Positions 52,580 to 63,105 of a stretch of 64,000 nt of DNA are shown here, one piece after another. The notes beneath the pieces are model-generated. The model was given only the letters and a program-made list of their open reading frames with translations, was not told where the DNA came from and searched no databases. The stretch covers positions 2,632-66,631 of the forward strand of contig NZ_JBCECK010000012.1 of the NCBI RefSeq assembly GCF_039207105.1. Reading direction: 5' to 3'. Made by a program: the position numbers and the translations under genes. Every line of letters begins with the position of its first letter. Position 1 is the first letter of the stretch. This DNA comes from Mucilaginibacter sp. (GTDB lineage Bacteria > Bacteroidota > Bacteroidia > Sphingobacteriales > Sphingobacteriaceae).

Positions 52580-53875
52580 ATGTCTCCGATCCCTCCGTTT
52601 TTCAGCCGTATCCGTGAATTCGTGAGTGGTCCGCCGGGGGCATTCCCGTTAACGGTACGTATCTTTCATTCTGTGCTGGCCATCAGTATGGCAGCCCTGG
52701 CTTATAATGTTCCGTTAAATTTTGCGGTAGGTTTACCCAAGATCGCGCTGGCCAGCGCGGTTACCTTGGCATTAGTTGTTTATCTCTTTTATCTGTCTCG
52801 TTTCGGCGGGCGGACGACGCCGGCCAGGTTGGTGTATTGTTTACTGGGTACCAGTCTGTTTGTAGCCAATTTCTTTTTGAACTCCGGTATTGATGGCCCC
52901 ACAGGTTACTTCTTTGTGCTGATGCTGGTTGTGATGGTCGCCATTGTTCCTGTAAGCGAATATTGGTATTGGGTAGGCAGTAACGTCACCTTGCTGGCAG
53001 GTTTGCATTTGCTGCAGTTTATGCGCCCGGATTTAATTCCCTTTACTTATCAGCAACGAGCGGATCGTTTCATCGATATGACCTCAGCTTATATAACGGT
53101 TGTGGTTATTGTACTGGCCTGTTTTTATATTATCCGGAAACGTTATGACAGCGAGCGGCTGGAAGCCCAGCAGAATGCGGCTAAGCTGCGGGTATTGGAC
53201 GCGGAAAAAAATAAGCTTTTTTCAATTATCTCGCATGATTTGCGCAGCCCCCTGTCTTTGATACAAAACTATCTGGAAATGCTTGCTGAATTCGATTTGT
53301 CAGAAACCGAACGCCGGGAAATTAAAGCACAGTTACTCCAATCTACGCGCGGCACCTTAGATATGGTCAATAATGTACTGTATTGGTCAACCAGTCAGAT
53401 GAGCGGCGGAGAAGTAAAGAGGGCGCATCTGGTGTTGGCTGATTTGTTGTCGCCGCAACTGCAATTGTTTCAGGCCATTGCGGCCCGTAAAAATATCCGG
53501 CTGGAAAGCGTGTTCGCGGAAAACACGACCATCCTGAGCAGCGCTGATATGATTCAATTGATTATACGGAATTTGCTGAATAATGCCATCAAATTTACTG
53601 CCCCCGGTGGTCACATTTATTTGTATGCCAGCCGTAATGGTTCAACCTGTTTGTTGACTATAAAGGATAGCGGCAATGGAAAACCCGCCGCTTTGAGCGA
53701 AAATATCTTTGAATTGAGTTCCGGTACCGTCAAAGGCACCGCCAATGAAAGTGGTGTGGGCCTGGGATTGGTGCTATGCCGTGAATACACCATGCTGTTG
53801 GGTGGGCGCATCTGGTTTAATTGCGATGAAAAAAGCGGTACTACCTTTTTTGTGGAATTGCCCGCTACAAACTAA
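52580..53875 (+). CDS. Membrane sensor histidine kinase (orphan)
   Basis: Multi-TM N-terminus; SHDLRSP H-box; RNLLNNAIKFT; DSGNG; GVGLGL. Confidence 0.92.
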   Translation: MSPIPPFFSRIREFVSGPPGAFPLTVRIFHSVLAISMAALAYNVPLNFAVGLPKIALASAVTLALVVYLFYLSRFGGRTTPARLVYCLLGTSLFVANFFLNSGIDGPTGYFFVLMLVVMVAIVPVSEYWYWVGSNVTLLAGLHLLQFMRPDLIPFTYQQRADRFIDMTSAYITVVVIVLACFYIIRKRYDSERLEAQQNAAKLRVLDAEKNKLFSIISHDLRSPLSLIQNYLEMLAEFDLSETERREIKAQLLQSTRGTLDMVNNVLYWSTSQMSGGEVKRAHLVLADLLSPQLQLFQAIAARKNIRLESVFAENTTILSSADMIQLIIRNLLNNAIKFTAPGGHIYLYASRNGSTCLLTIKDSGNGKPAALSENIFELSSGTVKGTANESGVGLGLVLCREYTMLLGGRIWFNCDEKSGTTFFVELPATN

Positions 53876-53893: not shown

Positions 53894-55186
53894 TCATAGC
53901 CCGTCATCAGGCGATACACGTTTTAGAATATACGACAGTAAGACTGCAAACAAAACGTAGCCCGCAAAAATAAAATACCCGGGTTGCAATGAGGTTCCGT
54001 TAGTTGTGACCACATTCAGGAAGTTATTGTGGATATTCAGGCTGGCAAGCTGGCTTTTCAAGATGCCGTTCAAGCCGATATAGGTCATAAGCATACCGAC
54101 GATCATCACATCAGACATGTCCCATTTGCCCAATTCAAAAGTGAGATACCGAACTGTGCTGTTACGGGCCATCTTTTTGGGGCTGAGCACATAGACTCCT
54201 TTGGCGATGAGTCGCAAAAGGGGCAGTATTAGTATAAATAATAAAATAAGTATCCCAACTGCAATGGCGTCTGGTTTGGGCTGCCCGATCAACGTTTTAA
54301 CGATGCCAAGTATACTTTTGCTTTGATAAAATAGCACTTGGTTTTTAAATTCCACCTTGCCATTCAGTAATTCCAGATCCAGGGATTGGATGCGGGCATC
54401 CACTTCGATTACCGGTAAAAGGCTGCCCGTGATCAGCATTACGAACGCAAACAACAAGGAAAAAATGAATAGCGGTGTTTGTAAATGCACTTTCTTGTGC
54501 AGGGTAAACCAAAACAGCAGCGCAACCAGTACGCAACCCAGCATAATACACACATATTGAATGAGCTGCGTTTTAAGTGTGTCCAGCTTTTGATTGATAC
54601 GCTGGTTAAAGGCCTCCGGGTTTGATATCTTGTATTTTTTATACACATATTTGGTCACCTTGTAATTAGCCACACTGACGCTGTCATAGATCTGCCTTGT
54701 AAGCTGGTGTACTTTGCTGCCCGCAATGTTTTTCAGACGGGCTTCACTTTCGGGGCTACTAATCTTAGCCACAATGGTCTTGGCGAAGGGCCTCACCTGT
54801 GCCTGTAGTTCAGCTGAATCTACAAGTGTATTAAAGGCTAACTTTTTCAGCTTAGCACCAAGTCCTTTTTGCGGTTGGTTGATCTCAGCTACCGTTTTAC
54901 TCACCAGCCCATGCATTTCCTTTTCCACCATGATCAGGAGGTCTTTCTGCTGCGCTTTTGTGATATGGTAATCCTGTATTTGGTCGCTCAGCACAGCTGT
55001 GATACGGTCGCGCCATTGATCAATGGAGAACAACCCGAAAGTAACGCTGTTGGCCAGGCTGTAATCTTCTTTAACCTGCTCACGCTCGGCGGAGATGCTG
55101 GCCAGCCGGTAACCTGCATAAGCAGCTCCGGCCAGTAATAAACTAAGCCCGGCAAGCATGATTATATTTGATATCGTATATTTCAT
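53894..55186 (-). CDS. pqiA: PqiA-domain membrane protein with a large periplasmic helical region
   Basis: ILILPLLR; GKWDMSDV; LQPGY; about 6 TM segments. Confidence 0.75.
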   Translation of the reverse strand: MKYTISNIIMLAGLSLLLAGAAYAGYRLASISAEREQVKEDYSLANSVTFGLFSIDQWRDRITAVLSDQIQDYHITKAQQKDLLIMVEKEMHGLVSKTVAEINQPQKGLGAKLKKLAFNTLVDSAELQAQVRPFAKTIVAKISSPESEARLKNIAGSKVHQLTRQIYDSVSVANYKVTKYVYKKYKISNPEAFNQRINQKLDTLKTQLIQYVCIMLGCVLVALLFWFTLHKKVHLQTPLFIFSLLFAFVMLITGSLLPVIEVDARIQSLDLELLNGKVEFKNQVLFYQSKSILGIVKTLIGQPKPDAIAVGILILLFILILPLLRLIAKGVYVLSPKKMARNSTVRYLTFELGKWDMSDVMIVGMLMTYIGLNGILKSQLASLNIHNNFLNVVTTNGTSLQPGYFIFAGYVLFAVLLSYILKRVSPDDGL

Positions 55187-56488
55187 TTAGTGGGTATCAT
55201 GCGGGGTGATATATTTAAGAATAGTTGATAAGATCAACCCATACAGTACAAAACTGATAAAAACGATATAGCCCGGCTGTAACGCCGTATTATTGGTAGT
55301 GATCAGCGTTAACTCCTGGCCACGGATATTTAGTAAAGCAAGCTGTTTATCCAAAAGACCATTCAAACCGATATAGGTCATTAGTATAGCGATCACGATC
55401 ACATCGGCCATGCTCCATTTGCCTGATTGAAAAGCAAAATATTTGATGAAACGGTTTTCGGCCAGTTTCTTTTTACTGAGTAAATGAATGCCGGTGGAGC
55501 TGAGCTTAGTGACCGGGAACAGAATGCTGAAGCAAAGTATAAGTATGCCCACGGCAATCGAATCAAGAGCAGGCTGTTTTACCAATACCTCCACTACACC
55601 CAGAATACTCTTGCTTTCGTAAAACAGCACCTGGTCTTTAAATGTCACATGTTCACCCAGCAATACAAAATCCAGTGCTTTGATGCGACAGTCAACCTCG
55701 ATCATTGAAGCGCTCAAACCAACCGCGAGCAGGATAAACGCGAACATTAGCGACATGATAAACAACGTACCATGCAGCTCGGTACGCTTGCGCAAAATCC
55801 ACCATAAAGCCAGCACAGCGATAATACAGGCGAGCATTAAAAAACAAAAACGGTACATACTTACTCGAATTTCTTCTAACGTACGGTCAAGTTTCTGGTT
55901 TAACTCCTCTTTTGAATGAACCTGGTATTTTTTAAACATACTGTTAAACAGCGCATGATTGGCCTGCAAAGTGCTGTCTACACTTTCTGTATGCTGCAGT
56001 TCGGTAAACTTCCCCAGGGCCAAGTTACTCAACTTGGACTTTTGGTGGGGGTTGTCGGCCTTAGCGATGATGGAGCGGGCAAAAGCGGGAACCTGTGCCT
56101 TAACCTTATCAGTTTTGACAAAGGATTTGATAGCAAACTTTCGGATCTTTCCGACCAGACTTTTCGGTTTCTTCTCAACCATTGCCTCGGCCTTGTTGAT
56201 CAGGGCGTAAAGTACCGACTCAACCTCAGTTTGCAATTCCTGTTTCTGTTTGGAGGTCAATTTGAAATGTTTTACCTGCCGGTTCACGATGCCTGCAACC
56301 TCATCCCGCCATTGTTCTACAGACAAAAGACCATAAGAAATATTATTGACCGTGGAATGGTCAAGCTTGATCATTTCTTGTTGCTTAGATAGCTCGTGCA
56401 GTCTGTAACTAAAAAAGCCTTCCAGGCCCAGCAAAACAGCAAGACCAAGAATCAAAAGTATTTTCGGGAGATATTGCTTATTACTCAA
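55187..56488 (-). CDS. pqiA: PqiA-domain membrane protein (paralog, abuts the next gene)
   Basis: FSILFPVTK; GKWSMADV; LQPGY. Confidence 0.78.
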   Translation of the reverse strand: MSNKQYLPKILLILGLAVLLGLEGFFSYRLHELSKQQEMIKLDHSTVNNISYGLLSVEQWRDEVAGIVNRQVKHFKLTSKQKQELQTEVESVLYALINKAEAMVEKKPKSLVGKIRKFAIKSFVKTDKVKAQVPAFARSIIAKADNPHQKSKLSNLALGKFTELQHTESVDSTLQANHALFNSMFKKYQVHSKEELNQKLDRTLEEIRVSMYRFCFLMLACIIAVLALWWILRKRTELHGTLFIMSLMFAFILLAVGLSASMIEVDCRIKALDFVLLGEHVTFKDQVLFYESKSILGVVEVLVKQPALDSIAVGILILCFSILFPVTKLSSTGIHLLSKKKLAENRFIKYFAFQSGKWSMADVIVIAILMTYIGLNGLLDKQLALLNIRGQELTLITTNNTALQPGYIVFISFVLYGLILSTILKYITPHDTH

Positions 56489-56913: not shown

Positions 56914-58083
56914 TTATCGCAGTAGGTTCATCAATAATTCGTCTTTCAATTGCCCGGCCTTTGCAGGCAGATCGCCGGGAAATAAGGTGCCGATATTGGT
57001 TGAAATAAAAACATAGGTTTTAGCGGCCGGGATATATAATAAGATACAACCTGCCCCAATGCCGCCGCCGGAATGCCCATAAGCCTGAATGCCGCCTGCT
57101 TCAAAAAACTCGAGGCCTAACCCGTAAACCGGTTTGCCGTCAGCACCGTTTACCCATTGGAGCATTTCTTTAAGCGAGGCTTTGGAAACCAGTTCTCCTT
57201 CCGTTCACCCTTTTAAAAATTTCACCGCGTCAACCGGTGTGCAAACTATTCCATCATCGCCGATATAAGATGCTACATTAGCACGTTGAATAGCTGAAAT
57301 ATTCGCGGGCTTACCTGTATTTAATACGTCCCAATAGGAGTCGGTCAGATTAGGGTAATGCAGGTAGTCAGGATCATTGCGGTAAAAGGTATTGCGGAGC
57401 CCAAGCTTTTCAAAAATGTGTTTCGCTATATAAGCAGCATGATCTCCGGTAATGGCATCGGCTATTACCGCAAGCAACTCATAATTGGTGTTGCAGTAAA
57501 CATGTTTTGAACCGGGTGCAAACATCGGTTCCTTACCTTTAATAGTGCCGATAACAAATTCGGTTGTCAGTTTGTGTGCCGGGTGCTCCATCACATAAGC
57601 AACAAAACCCGGATCGGTCGAGTATTCCGGTATTCCCGAAGTATGGTTCAGCAGCATGCGCACAGTGATAGCAGCCGCATTTTTTACTATGCCGGTGTAC
57701 TTTGCAGGCAAATACTTTTTGATAGGAGCGTCCAGATTTATCTTTCCCGCTTCCTTAAGCTGCATAATGGCTACTGCCATATAAGTTTTTGAAACGCTTT
57801 GCAGGTATTGCAGATCACAGTTTTCCATTGGCCTCTTCCGTTCTATGTTTGCATAACCCTCGGCACCGGCCCACCAACCATCCTTTTCAGAATAGACTGC
57901 CATGACGATGCCGGGTAATCCGGTTTTGACATATCTTTTCATAATGTCGTGCAGGCTATCTGATTTTGCATAGTTGTTATTAATTGGCACGACGATGCGG
58001 CAATTGTGGATGGTTTTGTTCTGTGCATTCAGGGTAATGATGTTCAAAATAACAGTAACCCAGGTTAGTAAAATCCTTTTCAT
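56914..58083 (-). pseudogene. Beta-lactamase-fold serine hydrolase interrupted by an in-frame TGA (57205-57207)
   Basis: Signal peptide MKRILL; SVSK; YCN; reading continues in frame KG*TEGELVSKASLKEMLQW to YGHSGG. Confidence 0.85.
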
Positions 58084-59044: not shown

Positions 59045-59445
59045 GGCGAGCTTTACACTGAAATATTATTAAAGGGCTATATACAGAGGTGAATAATCGT
59101 TGACGAAAAAAAGCTTTAAGAATGTCTGGAAATCAGTAAAGCTTTTCTGATAAAGATAAATAATTTACAGGATAACGCTATCTGTAGAAAAATTGCTCAA
59201 AATACTTAGTCAATTCGGAGTAGGGTCGATATTCCACTTTCGCTTCCCGCCTAATGAAAAGGCGACTCAGCGGAGTTGGAGAATTATTGATATATGATCA
59301 ATTTAATTTTAAAGTAATGGGTATAAAATATTCTAAAACCGCACAGGTATATGTTCGGTTCTGTTACGATTTGTAATTCGGGATATTGTCTATGTTTTTA
59401 CATATCAGTAAGTTGTAAATTTGGAATAAGGATTGAGCATATAAG

Positions 59446-62400
59446 ATGATGAGAACCTATACATTTCATATTAACGCCTACGACTTTGCATTTTTTGGAG
59501 CTATTTTTCTTGGGCTGGGCCTTGCGCTGCTTTTGTGGTTTGTCCCAAAAATGAACAGGGCCGCAAACCGGTTCCTGGCTTTGGCGCTTATGGTGGTTGT
59601 GTTGTATCTGGCTCATATACTGGCTATGGATATCGGGCTTGATGGTTATATCGCTCGCTGGAATTGGTTGCCATTGCCACTCTCGCTCGCTTTTGGTCCG
59701 TTGATTTTCTTTTATGTACTCAAGCTAACCCGGCCTGCATATCAATACCGGCTGAAGGATTTATTGCACTTTATTCCGTTGTTGTTTGAATTAGGTGTTC
59801 ACGGTTTGGAGATCAGGGAAAGTGGGAGAGCGGGATCGGGCACTTATACTAAGATGCTCTTTCAGCAGGTGAACCTTATTATACAGGCGTTTGCGTTGAT
59901 CTCGGTCATGATATACCTGTATTTTTGTTACGTACTTATCGAACGTTTTTACCGGCGTATAGAATTTAAAAATAATGACAGGTGCCGCTACGAAATGAAA
60001 TGGTTACATCACTTGCTAATTGTTTTCGGCTTTTTGTGGCTGTTGTGGCTACTCGTGGTAACCGTTGACTATTTTTATTACCACGATCAATCGGGTGCGC
60101 AAGCCTATTATCCACTATATCTACTTTTGGCGATAGTCTCGATCCGGACGGCTGCTATCGCATTTCTGAGGCCGGATGCCGGTTTAACTTCCGTTGCCCA
60201 ACCTGTTTTTAAGCCGGCGCCGCCAGAAGAGTCAAAGCGAAAAGGTACCTGGCTGAAGGGCATACTAAAGACTAACCAGTACTATCTGGATCCGGATCTT
60301 AGTTTACGCTCCCTGTCTGAAAAACTTGAACTGCACCCCAATGAACTGTCGCGGATATTGAATACTATACTTAAAAAAAGCTTTAACGACTTCATCAATG
60401 AATACCGCGTGGCAGCGGTTACCCAAAAAATGCTTAACCCGGCTTATGATCATTTAACCTTGCTGGGTATCGCGTTTGAATCGGGCTTTAATTCTAAAAC
60501 TACTTTTAACCGTACTTTCAAACAGTTGACCGGTAAAACCCCTGTCGAATATAAAAATGCTCTAAAAAAAGAGGGCCCATATTATAATTTGGAACGTCCG
60601 ACCCGTTTTGCGACGGTATTTTCGTATCAGCAAACGACTCCCAGGTGGAGCGATGTGAAATTAAATCGCAAAACAATGATCAAAAATTACTTCAAAATAG
60701 CCTGGCGTAACCTGTTGCGCAATAAAAGCTATGCCGCTATCAATGTTACCGGATTGGCTATAGGTATCGCGGCCTGCCTGCTGATATTCCTGGTTATTCA
60801 GTTTGAAACAAGTTTTGATAGTTTCCATGCCAATAGGGACCGGATCTATCGTATTGTTACGGTAAATAGTGGCCCTGATGGTGTTCATGCCGGATCGGGA
60901 ACACCATTGCCACTGGGGGAGGGATTAAAGCTTGATATTCCGCAAATCAAGCAGCTATCCAATATTATGCTGAATGGCGGTTCGCATTTTTCTATTCCGG
61001 CTGGGAGCGATGGTGCTGTGGTGAAAAAATTTAAAGAAGATCTGGCTTACTATGCTGACCCTGGTTTCTTTCAGATTTTTAATTTCAAATGGCTCGCAGG
61101 AGATAAACTTACTGCCTTATCCGAACCCAAAACGGTGGTATTAACCCGTGACGAGGCTGATAAGTTTTTTGGCGATTGGCGTACGGCAATGGGGAAAATA
61201 GTGCGTTACGAAAATAAGCGCGATTTGAAAGTGACCGGTATATTAGAGAATATGCCGGTAAATACCGATTTTCCGATGAAAGTGGCTATCTCCTGGCTCA
61301 CACTTATTGAAAAGGATGGGGATTTGAGCGGTAATGCCCAGGATTGGGTAAGTACTTTCGGCGACAGGAACTGCTATGTTGTTTTACCCCCGGGCCTCAG
61401 CGAAAAGCAGATGAACACCGAGTTGGGTTCCTTAGCCAAAAAACATATTCCGGCACCTTATAATAAAAACCAGACCTATCGATTACAGCCATTGAAAGAT
61501 ATGCATTATACCACCGATGTGGATGTTTACAGTGGGCACCCGTTTAGTAAACAGCTGATTAGGGTGATCAGCTTAATTGGCTTGTTCCTGCTGGTGATAG
61601 GCTGCGTTAACTTTATCAATCTGGCAACTGCGCAGGCTGTAAATCGCTCCAAGGAGGTGGGAATACGCAAGGTGCTGGGCAGTAACCGGTATCAGCTCCT
61701 GCTGCAATTTATTACCGAAACATTGATTATTACGCTGTTTGCTGTTGTACTGGCTTCTGTGCTGGCGCTTATCGCGTTGCCTATGCTGAACAGCCTGCTG
61801 GATGTGCGGTTGAGCAGCGGTTTCCTGGCAGATCCGGTAGTGATATTGTTTTTAGCGGGTGTAGTTATCGGTGTTACTTTTTTTGCCGGGTTTTATCCTG
61901 CGCTGGTTTTATCCGGATTTAACCCGATAGCGGCACTGCGAAATAAGATCAATGCCGGTAGGGCAAGCGGAATTTCATTGCGCAGGGTATTAGTGGTGAC
62001 CCAGTTCTGCATAGCCCAGTTCCTGGTTATCGGAACGCTGGTATTAATATACCAGATGAATTATTTTAAGAACAAATCCCTCGGCTTTAATAAAGATGCG
62101 GTAATTACAGTACCTTTTCCACGTGATAGTGCCGGTAGGGCGCGGGTTAGCGCCTTGAAAGACCAGCTATTGCAGCAGCCGGGAATAAAAGCGGTTAGCA
62201 CCAGTTTATATGCGCCGTCTGATAATGGTGGTTGGTTCAGCGATTTTAAATTTAACAATTCAGATAAGCAGGTTGATTTTGGGGCTTGCCTGAAATGGGC
62301 CGATGTCGATTATTTCAGGTTATACGATATTCAGTTTTTAGCCGGTGGGTTATACCCTAAATCAGACACGATATCCGGCTATGTGGTGAACGAGACCCTG

Positions 62401-63105
62401 ATCCATAAACTGGGTATTACCGATCCGAAACAGGCCATAGGTAAAAACATCATGCTCTGGAATAATAAGAACCTGAGGGCCGAAATCACGGGCGTGGTGA
62501 AGGATTTCAATACCAGATCGCTTCGTGGAGAAGTACCGCCGGTATTGATGGCGCCGTGGAAAGAGCAGTATGCCAAGTTGAATATAAAGGTTCGTCCCCA
62601 AAACCTGCGGCAAACTATGGCAGGTGTTGAAAGCTTGTGGAACAAAACTTACCCCGAAGGGGTGTATGAATACCAGTTTTTGGATAAAACCATAGCTCAT
62701 TTTTATAACAGTGAAGAGCAGCTATCCACGCTGTTCAAAATATTCGCCGGTATAGCCATCTTCATTTCCTGCCTTGGATTGTACGGCCTGGTGTCATTTA
62801 TGGCGGTACAGCGCACCAAAGAAGTTGGTATACGTAAAACATTAGGGGCCTCTGTGGGGCATATCGTGTACTTGTTTTCCAAAGAATTTACAGTGCTTAT
62901 CGTCATCGCGTTTGCGATATCAGCTCCGGTTGGCTATTACTTTATGCACAAATGGCTACAGGATTTTACCTACAGGATCACTATCGGGCCTGATATATTT
63001 ATCCTGTCCATATTAGCATCGGTCATCATTGCCTGGGCAAGCGTAGGTTATAAAGCGGTGAGGGCGGCGTTGGCTAACCCTGTAAAGAGTTTAAGGAGCG
63101 AATAA
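59446..63105 (+). CDS. Fusion of a 7TM sensor-AraC regulator (aa 1-~375) with a MacB/FtsX-type ABC permease (aa 411-1219)
   Basis: YYLDPDLSL..LS; SFNDFINEYRV; IAFESGFNSKTTFNRTFK..TG.TP; then MIKNYFKIAWRNLL, NFINLATA...RSKEVGIRKVLG, RTKEVGIRKTLGAS, ANPVKSLRSE; single open frame. Confidence 0.9.
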   Translation: MMRTYTFHINAYDFAFFGAIFLGLGLALLLWFVPKMNRAANRFLALALMVVVLYLAHILAMDIGLDGYIARWNWLPLPLSLAFGPLIFFYVLKLTRPAYQYRLKDLLHFIPLLFELGVHGLEIRESGRAGSGTYTKMLFQQVNLIIQAFALISVMIYLYFCYVLIERFYRRIEFKNNDRCRYEMKWLHHLLIVFGFLWLLWLLVVTVDYFYYHDQSGAQAYYPLYLLLAIVSIRTAAIAFLRPDAGLTSVAQPVFKPAPPEESKRKGTWLKGILKTNQYYLDPDLSLRSLSEKLELHPNELSRILNTILKKSFNDFINEYRVAAVTQKMLNPAYDHLTLLGIAFESGFNSKTTFNRTFKQLTGKTPVEYKNALKKEGPYYNLERPTRFATVFSYQQTTPRWSDVKLNRKTMIKNYFKIAWRNLLRNKSYAAINVTGLAIGIAACLLIFLVIQFETSFDSFHANRDRIYRIVTVNSGPDGVHAGSGTPLPLGEGLKLDIPQIKQLSNIMLNGGSHFSIPAGSDGAVVKKFKEDLAYYADPGFFQIFNFKWLAGDKLTALSEPKTVVLTRDEADKFFGDWRTAMGKIVRYENKRDLKVTGILENMPVNTDFPMKVAISWLTLIEKDGDLSGNAQDWVSTFGDRNCYVVLPPGLSEKQMNTELGSLAKKHIPAPYNKNQTYRLQPLKDMHYTTDVDVYSGHPFSKQLIRVISLIGLFLLVIGCVNFINLATAQAVNRSKEVGIRKVLGSNRYQLLLQFITETLIITLFAVVLASVLALIALPMLNSLLDVRLSSGFLADPVVILFLAGVVIGVTFFAGFYPALVLSGFNPIAALRNKINAGRASGISLRRVLVVTQFCIAQFLVIGTLVLIYQMNYFKNKSLGFNKDAVITVPFPRDSAGRARVSALKDQLLQQPGIKAVSTSLYAPSDNGGWFSDFKFNNSDKQVDFGACLKWADVDYFRLYDIQFLAGGLYPKSDTISGYVVNETLIHKLGITDPKQAIGKNIMLWNNKNLRAEITGVVKDFNTRSLRGEVPPVLMAPWKEQYAKLNIKVRPQNLRQTMAGVESLWNKTYPEGVYEYQFLDKTIAHFYNSEEQLSTLFKIFAGIAIFISCLGLYGLVSFMAVQRTKEVGIRKTLGASVGHIVYLFSKEFTVLIVIAFAISAPVGYYFMHKWLQDFTYRITIGPDIFILSILASVIIAWASVGYKAVRAALANPVKSLRSE

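Follow-up and report, generated by a model that had tools for sequence, protein, structure and literature searches.

A membrane-bound AraC-type regulator and a duplicated type VII ABC permease joined in one conserved open reading frame of Mucilaginibacter

Membrane-bound AraC regulators and MacB-type permeases are normally encoded by separate genes. In the stretch of DNA analyzed here (the window; 64,000 nucleotides (nt) of Mucilaginibacter sp., NCBI RefSeq assembly GCF_039207105.1, contig NZ_JBCECK010000012.1, positions 2,632 to 66,631 of the forward strand), a gene at 59446..63105 on the + strand encodes both in a single chain, as one open frame of 1219 codons followed by TAA and with no internal stop. 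A preliminary description of this DNA had proposed that the frame joins seven hydrophobic segments, a complete AraC double helix-turn-helix (HTH), a linker of 35 amino acids (aa) and a full permease. Each of these parts was recovered from the frame, Pfam and structure models, and the linker length agreed as well, with aa 376-410 lying between the end of the HTH and Met411. The parts of the gene, numbered by position in the window, are listed below.

59446..63105, + strand: the whole fused gene; the N-terminus MMRTYTFHIN aligns with the consensus start of homologs
59476..60168, + strand: seven-helix membrane domain, aa 11-241 (model helices, lysine plus arginine (K+R) distribution)
60229..60570, + strand: AraC/XylS-type DNA-binding domain with two HTH units, aa 262-375 (HTH_18, HTH_AraC, Foldseek)
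60571..60675, + strand: 35-aa linker, aa 376-410 (alignment, low predicted local distance difference test score (pLDDT), codon analysis)
60676..60678, + strand: internal ATG, Met411 (invariant in fused genes; the start codon in unfused paralogs)
60676..63102, + strand: complete duplicated type VII (MacB/FtsX-type) ATP-binding cassette (ABC) permease, aa 411-1219 (Pfam, model, Foldseek)
61642..61683, + strand: first coupling-helix motif NRSKEVGIRKVLGS, aa 733-746, between permease transmembrane (TM) helices TM2 and TM3
62809..62850, + strand: second coupling-helix motif QRTKEVGIRKTLGA, aa 1122-1135, between TM6 and TM7

All Pfam assignments exceeded the curated cut-offs: HTH_18 covered aa 290-371 with 52.1 bits (cut-off 33.6), HTH_AraC covered aa 337-369 with 32.4 bits (cut-off 26.6), and the permease, which opens with MIKNYFKIAW at Met411 (nt 60676), contained two stretches each of MacB_PCD (102 bits) and FtsX (90.5 bits). 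In an AlphaFold model of aa 1-380 (pLDDT 85.4), helices were placed at aa 11-31, 38-62, 80-95, 103-129, 137-171, 179-210 and 218-241, followed by the AraC domain, and the tether between the two (aa about 242-261) was modeled as low-confidence coil. Among 64 homologs, K+R were enriched in loops 1, 3 and 5 and past TM7. By the positive-inside rule this pattern orients the seven-helix (7TM) domain with its N-terminus outside and its C-terminus inside. The AraC domain then lies in the cytoplasm, where a MacB-type permease also has its N-terminus, as the preliminary description had supposed. No family was matched by the 7TM domain in the Pfam search, and a Foldseek comparison with solved structures returned nothing significant, only generic matches resembling G-protein-coupled receptors or rhodopsins (E 0.02-0.1). 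It is an N-out domain of an uncharacterized family, and its ratio of nonsynonymous to synonymous divergence (dN/dS) was 0.20 (Nei-Gojobori, 16 pairs).

The AraC domain was matched by Foldseek to the AraC-type DNA-binding domains 3oou, 6swi, 3lsg and 3w6v at a TM score of about 0.8, and by Pfam and Foldseek together it is an AraC/XylS double-HTH domain. No other part of the N-terminal module is as well conserved (dN/dS 0.11), and 14 of its residues, HTH residues among them, are invariant in the fused proteins and in stand-alone relatives alike; sequence-specific DNA binding and transcriptional control are predicted functions of the domain. Stand-alone 7TM-AraC homologs of about 370-410 aa are widespread in Bacteroidota, Balneolaceae and Acidobacteriota. 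They resemble the fused protein over aa 5-376, mostly at 25-40% identity, with seven helices and then the AraC domain, but they stop right past the HTH and have neither linker nor permease, and their gene neighbors vary. Two 381-aa stand-alone library entries reach up to about 50% identity to the fused protein and may be fragments. Separately, a 983-aa protein (P0205) carries the 7TM-AraC module (30% identity, aa 22-365) followed by about 600 non-permease residues, and may be another module fusion.

When a large protein collection was searched, matches in over 100 clusters were 1150-1250 aa long, shared the three Pfam domains and were 51-80% identical to the query across its full length (100%); most came from named Mucilaginibacter species, and clustering at 50% left about 20 fused representatives. 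Among species-representative genomes, 65 complete fused open reading frames (ORFs) were found in other assemblies, three of these assemblies being closed chromosomes (Mucilaginibacter sp. SMC90, Mucisp86 and McL0603). The fused genes often sit as tandem arrays of two or three. In its own genome the window gene is one of three fused paralogs, the two further copies being 41% and about 37% identical to it, and about 30 unfused 800-aa permease paralogs are arranged there in arrays. Within a family sample of 120 genomes, the genus was represented by 6, of which 4 carried fused genes (at least 12 copies in one), and two other genera had them as well, and a phylum sample of 400 genomes contained one further family with a fused gene. 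Purifying selection was found throughout, with dN/dS of 0.06-0.25 by part and 0.49 for the linker, the latter on a halved synonymous rate (dS). Overall, these results show that a family of such fusions spans Mucilaginibacter and a few other Bacteroidia, and that the fused gene is genuine, is under selection and encodes a 15-TM protein in a Mucilaginibacter-type genome.

This conservation bears directly on whether an assembly or sequencing error, or a recent stop loss, merely joined two neighboring genes whose full-length product is not selected. The genome assembly is fragmented (325 contigs) and a related copy carries a frameshift within its linker, which would suit such an origin. However, the uninterrupted architecture recurs in more than 100 clusters and at 65 loci, closed chromosomes included, with a linker of mostly equal length; purifying selection acts on the linker as well as on the domains to either side of it; and no adjacent but separate, co-oriented pair of 7TM-AraC and permease genes was found. 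When a separate 7TM-AraC gene directly 5' of a permease gene was looked for, the five read-through candidates proved to be tandem permeases, unrelated neighbors or a contig end, and at the stand-alone 7TM-AraC loci only 1 of 23 had permease genes close by, in convergent orientation. The preliminary description had allowed for a strain-specific stop loss with all relatives carrying two genes; since relatives carry the fused gene, and since the fusion is kept across clusters, loci and closed chromosomes, it is not a strain-specific accident. From the compared sequences we regard the artefact as already refuted, and its chance of being correct as negligible.

Two records within this set deserve mention in their own right. 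In Mucilaginibacter flavidus (L020:9834-11428), the frameshift inside the linker of one family copy leaves a 397-aa 7TM-AraC ORF, with the remainder of the linker and the permease from its ATG in the other frame; it is either a natural split variant or a sequencing error. In addition, a contig labelled as a Citrobacter freundii metagenome-assembled genome (QFQQ01000035.1) carries a typical fused gene of the Bacteroidota family and is probably mis-binned.

In the full-length model (aa 9-1208; pLDDT 72.6, predicted template modelling score (pTM) 0.46), the permease half, a pseudo-dimer in a single chain, consists of 8 TM helices in two pseudo-repeats, each of which holds one periplasmic MacB_PCD domain, and a cytoplasmic loop joins the repeats. 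The arrangement that defines the type VII superfamily, an FtsX three-helix unit after TM1 together with a periplasmic MacB_PCD domain, is by Pfam present twice over. Foldseek ranked E. coli YbbP (9GE6, E 2e-15) first, followed by MacB, pneumococcal 5XU1, LolCDE, YtrEF, HrtBA and BceAB. The NCBIfam model ADOP (TIGR03434) aligned end to end over aa 417-1219, with a score of 309.4 bits against a cut-off of 622.3, so that by NCBI's rule the fused protein is not an ADOP member. The dN/dS of the permease parts is 0.06-0.12.

In MacB/YbbP-type permeases the coupling helices dock the ABC ATPase (PMC12646458). Both coupling-helix motifs of the fused protein are invariant in 60 fused homologs, the invariant residues of the first being N, R, E, V, G, R, K, V and G, and we take this as evidence that the permease half is ATPase-competent and that an ATPase probably still docks on it. 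The preliminary description had noted that no ABC ATPase gene is adjacent. This held among the neighbors inspected near the fused ORF, and no LolD/MacB-type ATPase gene was found on the 69-kb contig; genome-wide it did not hold, since six LolD/MacB-type ATPase genes are present on other contigs. Two of them (C120:2709-3359 and C281:1444-2103) directly adjoin unfused permease paralogs, and with six such genes in the genome, two of them beside paralogs, a partner acting in trans is plausible.

The missing neighbor can also be read differently, with the AraC fold re-used as a cytoplasmic regulatory or plug domain on the permease, where, instead of binding DNA, it would modulate the ATPase or take its place. 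An ATPase gene adjoins the fused gene at none of the inspected loci, and the AraC domain sits beside the cytoplasmic face of the permease. We nevertheless judge this very improbable, since the AraC domain is the best conserved N-terminal part and shares its HTH residues with permease-free relatives, the ATPase-docking helices are invariant, and ATPase genes of the right type are encoded in the genome.

The linker was of constant length across 106 homologs, except for a 4-residue deletion in a few, and contained the recurring motifs P-S-Y-N-L-G, V-I-S, E-T-x-P-K-W and K-L-N-R-N-x-M. It is predicted to be disordered (aa 377-411 are low-confidence coil with pLDDT below 50 in the model). A protease might cut the linker or the tether preceding the HTH, thereby freeing the AraC domain or detaching the regulator from its permease, in the manner of regulated proteolysis. 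Disorder is predicted for both tethers (aa 242-261 and aa 376-410), and the conserved linker motifs could form a recognition site. In contrast, two cuts would be required to free the AraC domain, no protease gene is conserved nearby at the inspected loci, and stand-alone relatives keep the AraC domain on the 7TM domain, which indicates that membrane-bound action is the norm of the family. Cleavage is therefore improbable in our view.

The linker DNA had a deficit of synonymous change. Its dN (0.22) was similar to that of the 7TM domain in the same pairwise comparison, while its dS was 0.45 versus about 0.95 elsewhere in the gene. Over aa 376-425, codons whose residue is shared by the two sequences of a pair had 109 synonymous differences, against 183 expected from the same residues elsewhere in the gene, i.e., 40% fewer; the deficit was present for nearly every amino acid. 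Rare codons were fixed site by site: Pro378 is CCA in 42 of 44 sequences (overall share 0.16), Ser379 TCT in 24 of 28 (0.10), Arg383 AGA in 28 of 29 (0.10), Val391 GTA in 32 of 34, Ser393 TCG in 34 of 38 and Leu406 TTA in 55 of 55 (overall share 0.18). A conserved RNA structure at the junction was rejected, as RNAalifold on 29 sequences gave 0 conserved pairs. The ATG of Met411 was invariant (64/64 and 69/69 sequences), and unfused paralogs start exactly there. In the window, this ATG has A at -3, -6 and -11 to -13. Bacteroidia do not use Shine-Dalgarno pairing, and initiation in them is therefore tuned by A at -3 and low structure (PMC6847099).

Just 5' of the ATG lies AAA-TTA-AAC, and further upstream the conserved codons GTA-ATT-TCG read TAATTTCG, which is one mismatch from the -7 consensus TAnnTTTG. 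The usual spacing between -33 and -7 elements in the Bacteroidota consensus is 19-21 nt. No well-spaced -33 element was seen for TAATTTCG, the only upstream TTTG being 25 nt away. The upstream DNA of the 24 unfused copies in the genome was without similarity to the linker DNA, and the idea that the linker is a relic of a common upstream element was rejected. The pattern in the linker DNA fits either a retained internal start or a conversion hot spot.

These observations open the possibility that the linker DNA is an internal promoter, a translation start or both, from which mostly free permease is made with a minor full-length product, the permease then being incidental to a membrane-bound AraC regulator. 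This would explain the invariant internal ATG at the methionine where unfused paralogs begin, the missing synonymous changes, the fixed rare codons (those of the TAnnTTTG-like box and of AAA-TTA-AAC among them), and the absence of conserved RNA structure beside an A at -3 that favors initiation. However, no stop separates the two halves, so that a ribosome starting at 59446 always makes the full-length chain; the length and residues of the linker are conserved, although a signal that is not translated could do without this; the -7-like box deviates at one position and its TTTG lies outside the usual spacing; and gene conversion could give an equal synonymous deficit. As a replacement for a selected single chain, we consider this account possible but doubtful. 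Internal initiation at Met411 as such, suggested by the codon pattern, would be compatible with a selected single chain, and we hold it only tentatively.

To our surprise, the two halves of the fused genes have discordant histories. Among 64 fused genes, the N-terminal 420 codons varied less than the permease parts, in residues as well as at third codon positions (entropy 1.0-1.4 vs 1.6-1.9), and pairwise N-terminal identity was about 45-80% regardless of permease identity (r = 0.26). Tandem neighbors at locus L042 share an N-terminal module that is 82% identical on permeases that are 31% identical, the permeases of L034 and L067 are 88% identical with modules at 51%, and the nearest relatives of the window gene have permeases 77-85% identical to it with 7TM domains at only 54-65%. 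In approximately unbiased (AU) tests, the N-terminal data rejected a permease-supported clade (p 6e-4) and the permease data rejected the L042 pair (p 5e-9), p-values that are descriptive because the clades were picked after the identity table had been viewed. A tree built from 119 permease domains interspersed fused with unfused copies and required 30 changes between the two states, 25 of which were forced by well-supported branches. Leaving out the copies that lay too close to the edge of a locus to be judged, and one that had an N-terminal remnant upstream of it, gave 110 rows with at least 26 changes, against an average of 33 in label shuffles; as a count on an unrooted tree it gives no direction, gain or loss, for any change, and since the loci were sampled via the fused gene, the ratio of fused to unfused copies is biased.

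The identity profile of discordant pairs switches at aa 380-440, i.e., in the linker and the conserved start of the permease, where the DNA is nearly identical even among unfused paralogs; the position of this switch indicates a cassette-like behavior of the 7TM-AraC module, which recombination joins to one permease paralog or another. Both halves also exist alone, as the stand-alone 7TM-AraC proteins and as an unfused permease of strain X4EP1, which is 74% identical to the window permease, has a clean promoter region without a trace of the module, and at the junction has no more than the opening 18 nt of the permease ORF in common with the fused gene. Most simply, these comparisons are explained by homologous recombination within the conserved junction, through which the 7TM-AraC-linker cassette passes from one permease paralog to another and is in some cases lost. 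The discordance between the two halves is the new result here.

Overall, we favor the explanation, at a probability of roughly 55%, that the selected single chain encoded by the fused gene, from a family whose members exchange the regulator as a cassette, works as a membrane-tethered one-component regulator joined to a type VII permease. In such a protein, fusion would keep the regulator at 1:1 with the permease, and a shared ATPase of the MacB/LolD type would power the permease in trans. A compound active on the membrane or envelope would be sensed by the 7TM domain, possibly with neighboring permease helices, whereupon the AraC domain would switch transcription, most simply of its own gene, or else of paralog and ATPase genes. 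Signalling would thus resemble that of BceAB-BceS but within one chain and without phosphotransfer, and the linker DNA would probably keep a working internal start at Met411 so that the permease is also made alone.

The preliminary description had seen in the fusion a topologically compatible protein that might couple transport or mechanotransmission directly to DNA binding. The fusion is real, conserved and topologically compatible. A coupling of transport to DNA binding would be hypothetical, and the disordered linker, together with the exchange and loss of modules, argues for a loose, modular coupling over a tight mechanical link; tight mechanical "flux sensing" is possible but not favored. 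Several points weigh against the favored explanation. The permease can do without the module, as is evident from how often the module has been lost or swapped. A floppy tether would be a poor mechanical coupler, and at a pTM of 0.46 a contact between the 7TM domain and the permease cannot be claimed. Gene conversion at the junction, and not a start signal, could cause the synonymous deficit, and conserved neighbors or target genes of the orthologs were not found, the orthologs lying in differing contexts. To these are added the post hoc choice of clades and the biased sampling of loci noted above.

The promoter region and the neighbors of the fused gene were inspected for hints of a regulon. 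The features are as follows.

59416..59423, + strand: TAAATTTG, candidate -7 box, matching the Bacteroidota -7 promoter consensus TAnnTTTG, 30 nt 5' of the start codon
58223-59044, - strand: neighboring gene, divergent from the fused one, whose 273-aa product ends in a LytTR DNA-binding domain
57205-58083, - strand: gene for a 292-aa beta-lactamase-fold protein, next after the LytTR gene
C126:8287-8322, C126:13247-13303, C215:6530-6591 and C94:5795-5816 (and 19 more), outside the window: examples of repeat clusters

The leader GGAATAAGGATTGAG lies directly 3' of the TAAATTTG box, before the start codon, and a similar box and leader (TAAGTTTG ... GCGATTGAG) is present upstream of the fused paralog group L026, a weak likeness among 8 upstream regions compared. 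Over 59416-59445, the leader TAAATTTGGAATAAGGATTGAG resembles the leaders of three fused groups in other species, TAAGTTTGTAACAGCGATTGAG (L026), GGAACAGCGATTGA (L018) and GGAACAGTGATTGA (L023). It is a candidate promoter or leader element that the cassette copies have in common. The search for a site of autoregulation covered only the 8 upstream regions recovered by start-codon picking, too few to judge.

Direct repeats (TTAGAATTT / TTAGAGTTT / TTAGGTTTT, 3-7 per cluster) form 23 clusters that fill gaps of the unfused permease arrays and occur elsewhere too. As an AraC operator the TTAGAATTT clusters were rejected, as they lie upstream of array permeases and in many unrelated places but not upstream of the fused gene; an operator, a terminator and an element of the repetitive extragenic palindromic (REP) kind are candidates for what they are. 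Three stand-alone 7TM-AraC relatives from other genomes have a beta-lactamase-fold gene adjoining or close by, as the fused gene does, but such a gene was rejected as a fixed partner of stand-alone 7TM-AraC genes, being present at only 4 of 23 loci. Other neighbors encode a DUF2231/cytochrome protein and a DUF1501 protein. A histidine kinase gene (52580-53875) lies 5.5 kb off and is not linked to the fused gene in orthologs. At 53894-56374 on the - strand, two abutting paralogs of 430 and 395 aa carry one PqiA domain each, with no MCE/PqiB gene adjoining. The ortholog of M. celer (L097:2090-5722) lies beside LmuB_C and MC3 Pfam matches, which are defence-like, and that of M. kameinonensis (L096) between a TonB-dependent receptor gene and efp, so that the fused gene has no fixed address.

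A more far-reaching version, in which the chain is a sensing transporter whose 7TM domain and working permease jointly gate the AraC domain, with an exchangeable cassette and a linker that specifies two products, is unlikely as a whole. If it were true, transcription would depend on substrate or flux without a kinase, the linker would be both tether and start signal, with a tunable ratio of regulator-permease to free permease, and 7TM-AraC-linker would be a portable cassette that plugs onto any permease paralog at the Met411 junction by recombination. Transporter-sensors are usually multi-protein (BceAB-BceS, LysP-CadC), and their coupling step is hard to isolate. The fused chain, with natural unfused, split and module-swapped variants as controls, would offer a compact system in which to ask whether transporter activity can be read as transcription. 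It also provides a first handle on two large uncharacterized groups, the 800-aa "orphan" duplicated permeases of Bacteroidota and Acidobacteriota and the widespread 7TM-AraC regulators, and the exchange of a regulator module among paralogs is in itself an unusual mode of family evolution.

The preliminary description had stated that no characterized example was known to it, and a literature search for a 7TM-AraC-permease fusion found no description. Databases label the fused proteins only "ABC transporter permease", to which JGI adds "AraC-like DNA-binding protein". Among known systems, the permease half shares with YbbP (YbbAP-TesA, 9GE6) the duplicated MacB/FtsX plan in a single chain, with two periplasmic Porter/Sabre-type domains and two coupling helices (PMC12646458). 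YbbP, part of the YbbAP-TesA lipid-extraction complex, has 10 TM helices, and its two coupling helices dock two YbbA ATPases (PMC12646458). The 10 helices include TM5 and TM6, which link the repeats, whereas the fused permease has 8 (by model only) and so departs from the YbbP plan. The YbbP gene lies beside that of its ATPase YbbA, and the protein, whose partner is the hydrolase TesA, is without an N-terminal 7TM or DNA-binding domain and only 13% identical. ADOP permeases, like the fused permease, are about 800 aa long with two FtsX units, form large families of paralogs in tandem arrays and usually have no ATPase gene nearby, but the fused protein scores below the family cut-off (309 versus 622 bits). 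To our knowledge, the ADOP definition names no fused regulator.

In BceAB-BceS of Firmicutes (PDB 7TCG, 8G3A), a type VII permease is physically coupled to a sensor that controls transcription, and BceB is among the structural matches of the fused permease. There, a separate histidine kinase, BceS, passes the signal to BceR by phosphotransfer, while the permease BceB is built of 10 TM helices and a single extracellular domain. In contrast, the fused protein has its DNA-binding domain in the same chain and no kinase domain, which sets it outside the Bce type, and a coupling between its halves is putative. ToxR, TcpP and CadC, like the fused protein, tether a DNA-binding domain at the cytoplasmic face of the membrane, where it must find its operator. 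Theirs is an OmpR-type winged helix at the N-terminus, combined with a single TM helix and a sensor in the periplasm, whereas in the fused protein an AraC double HTH stands between a 7TM domain and an 8TM permease. In essence, the arrangement is like that of BceAB-BceS and of ToxR/CadC while belonging to neither, and it is built on a permease that is ADOP-like and YbbP-like and formally a member of neither family.

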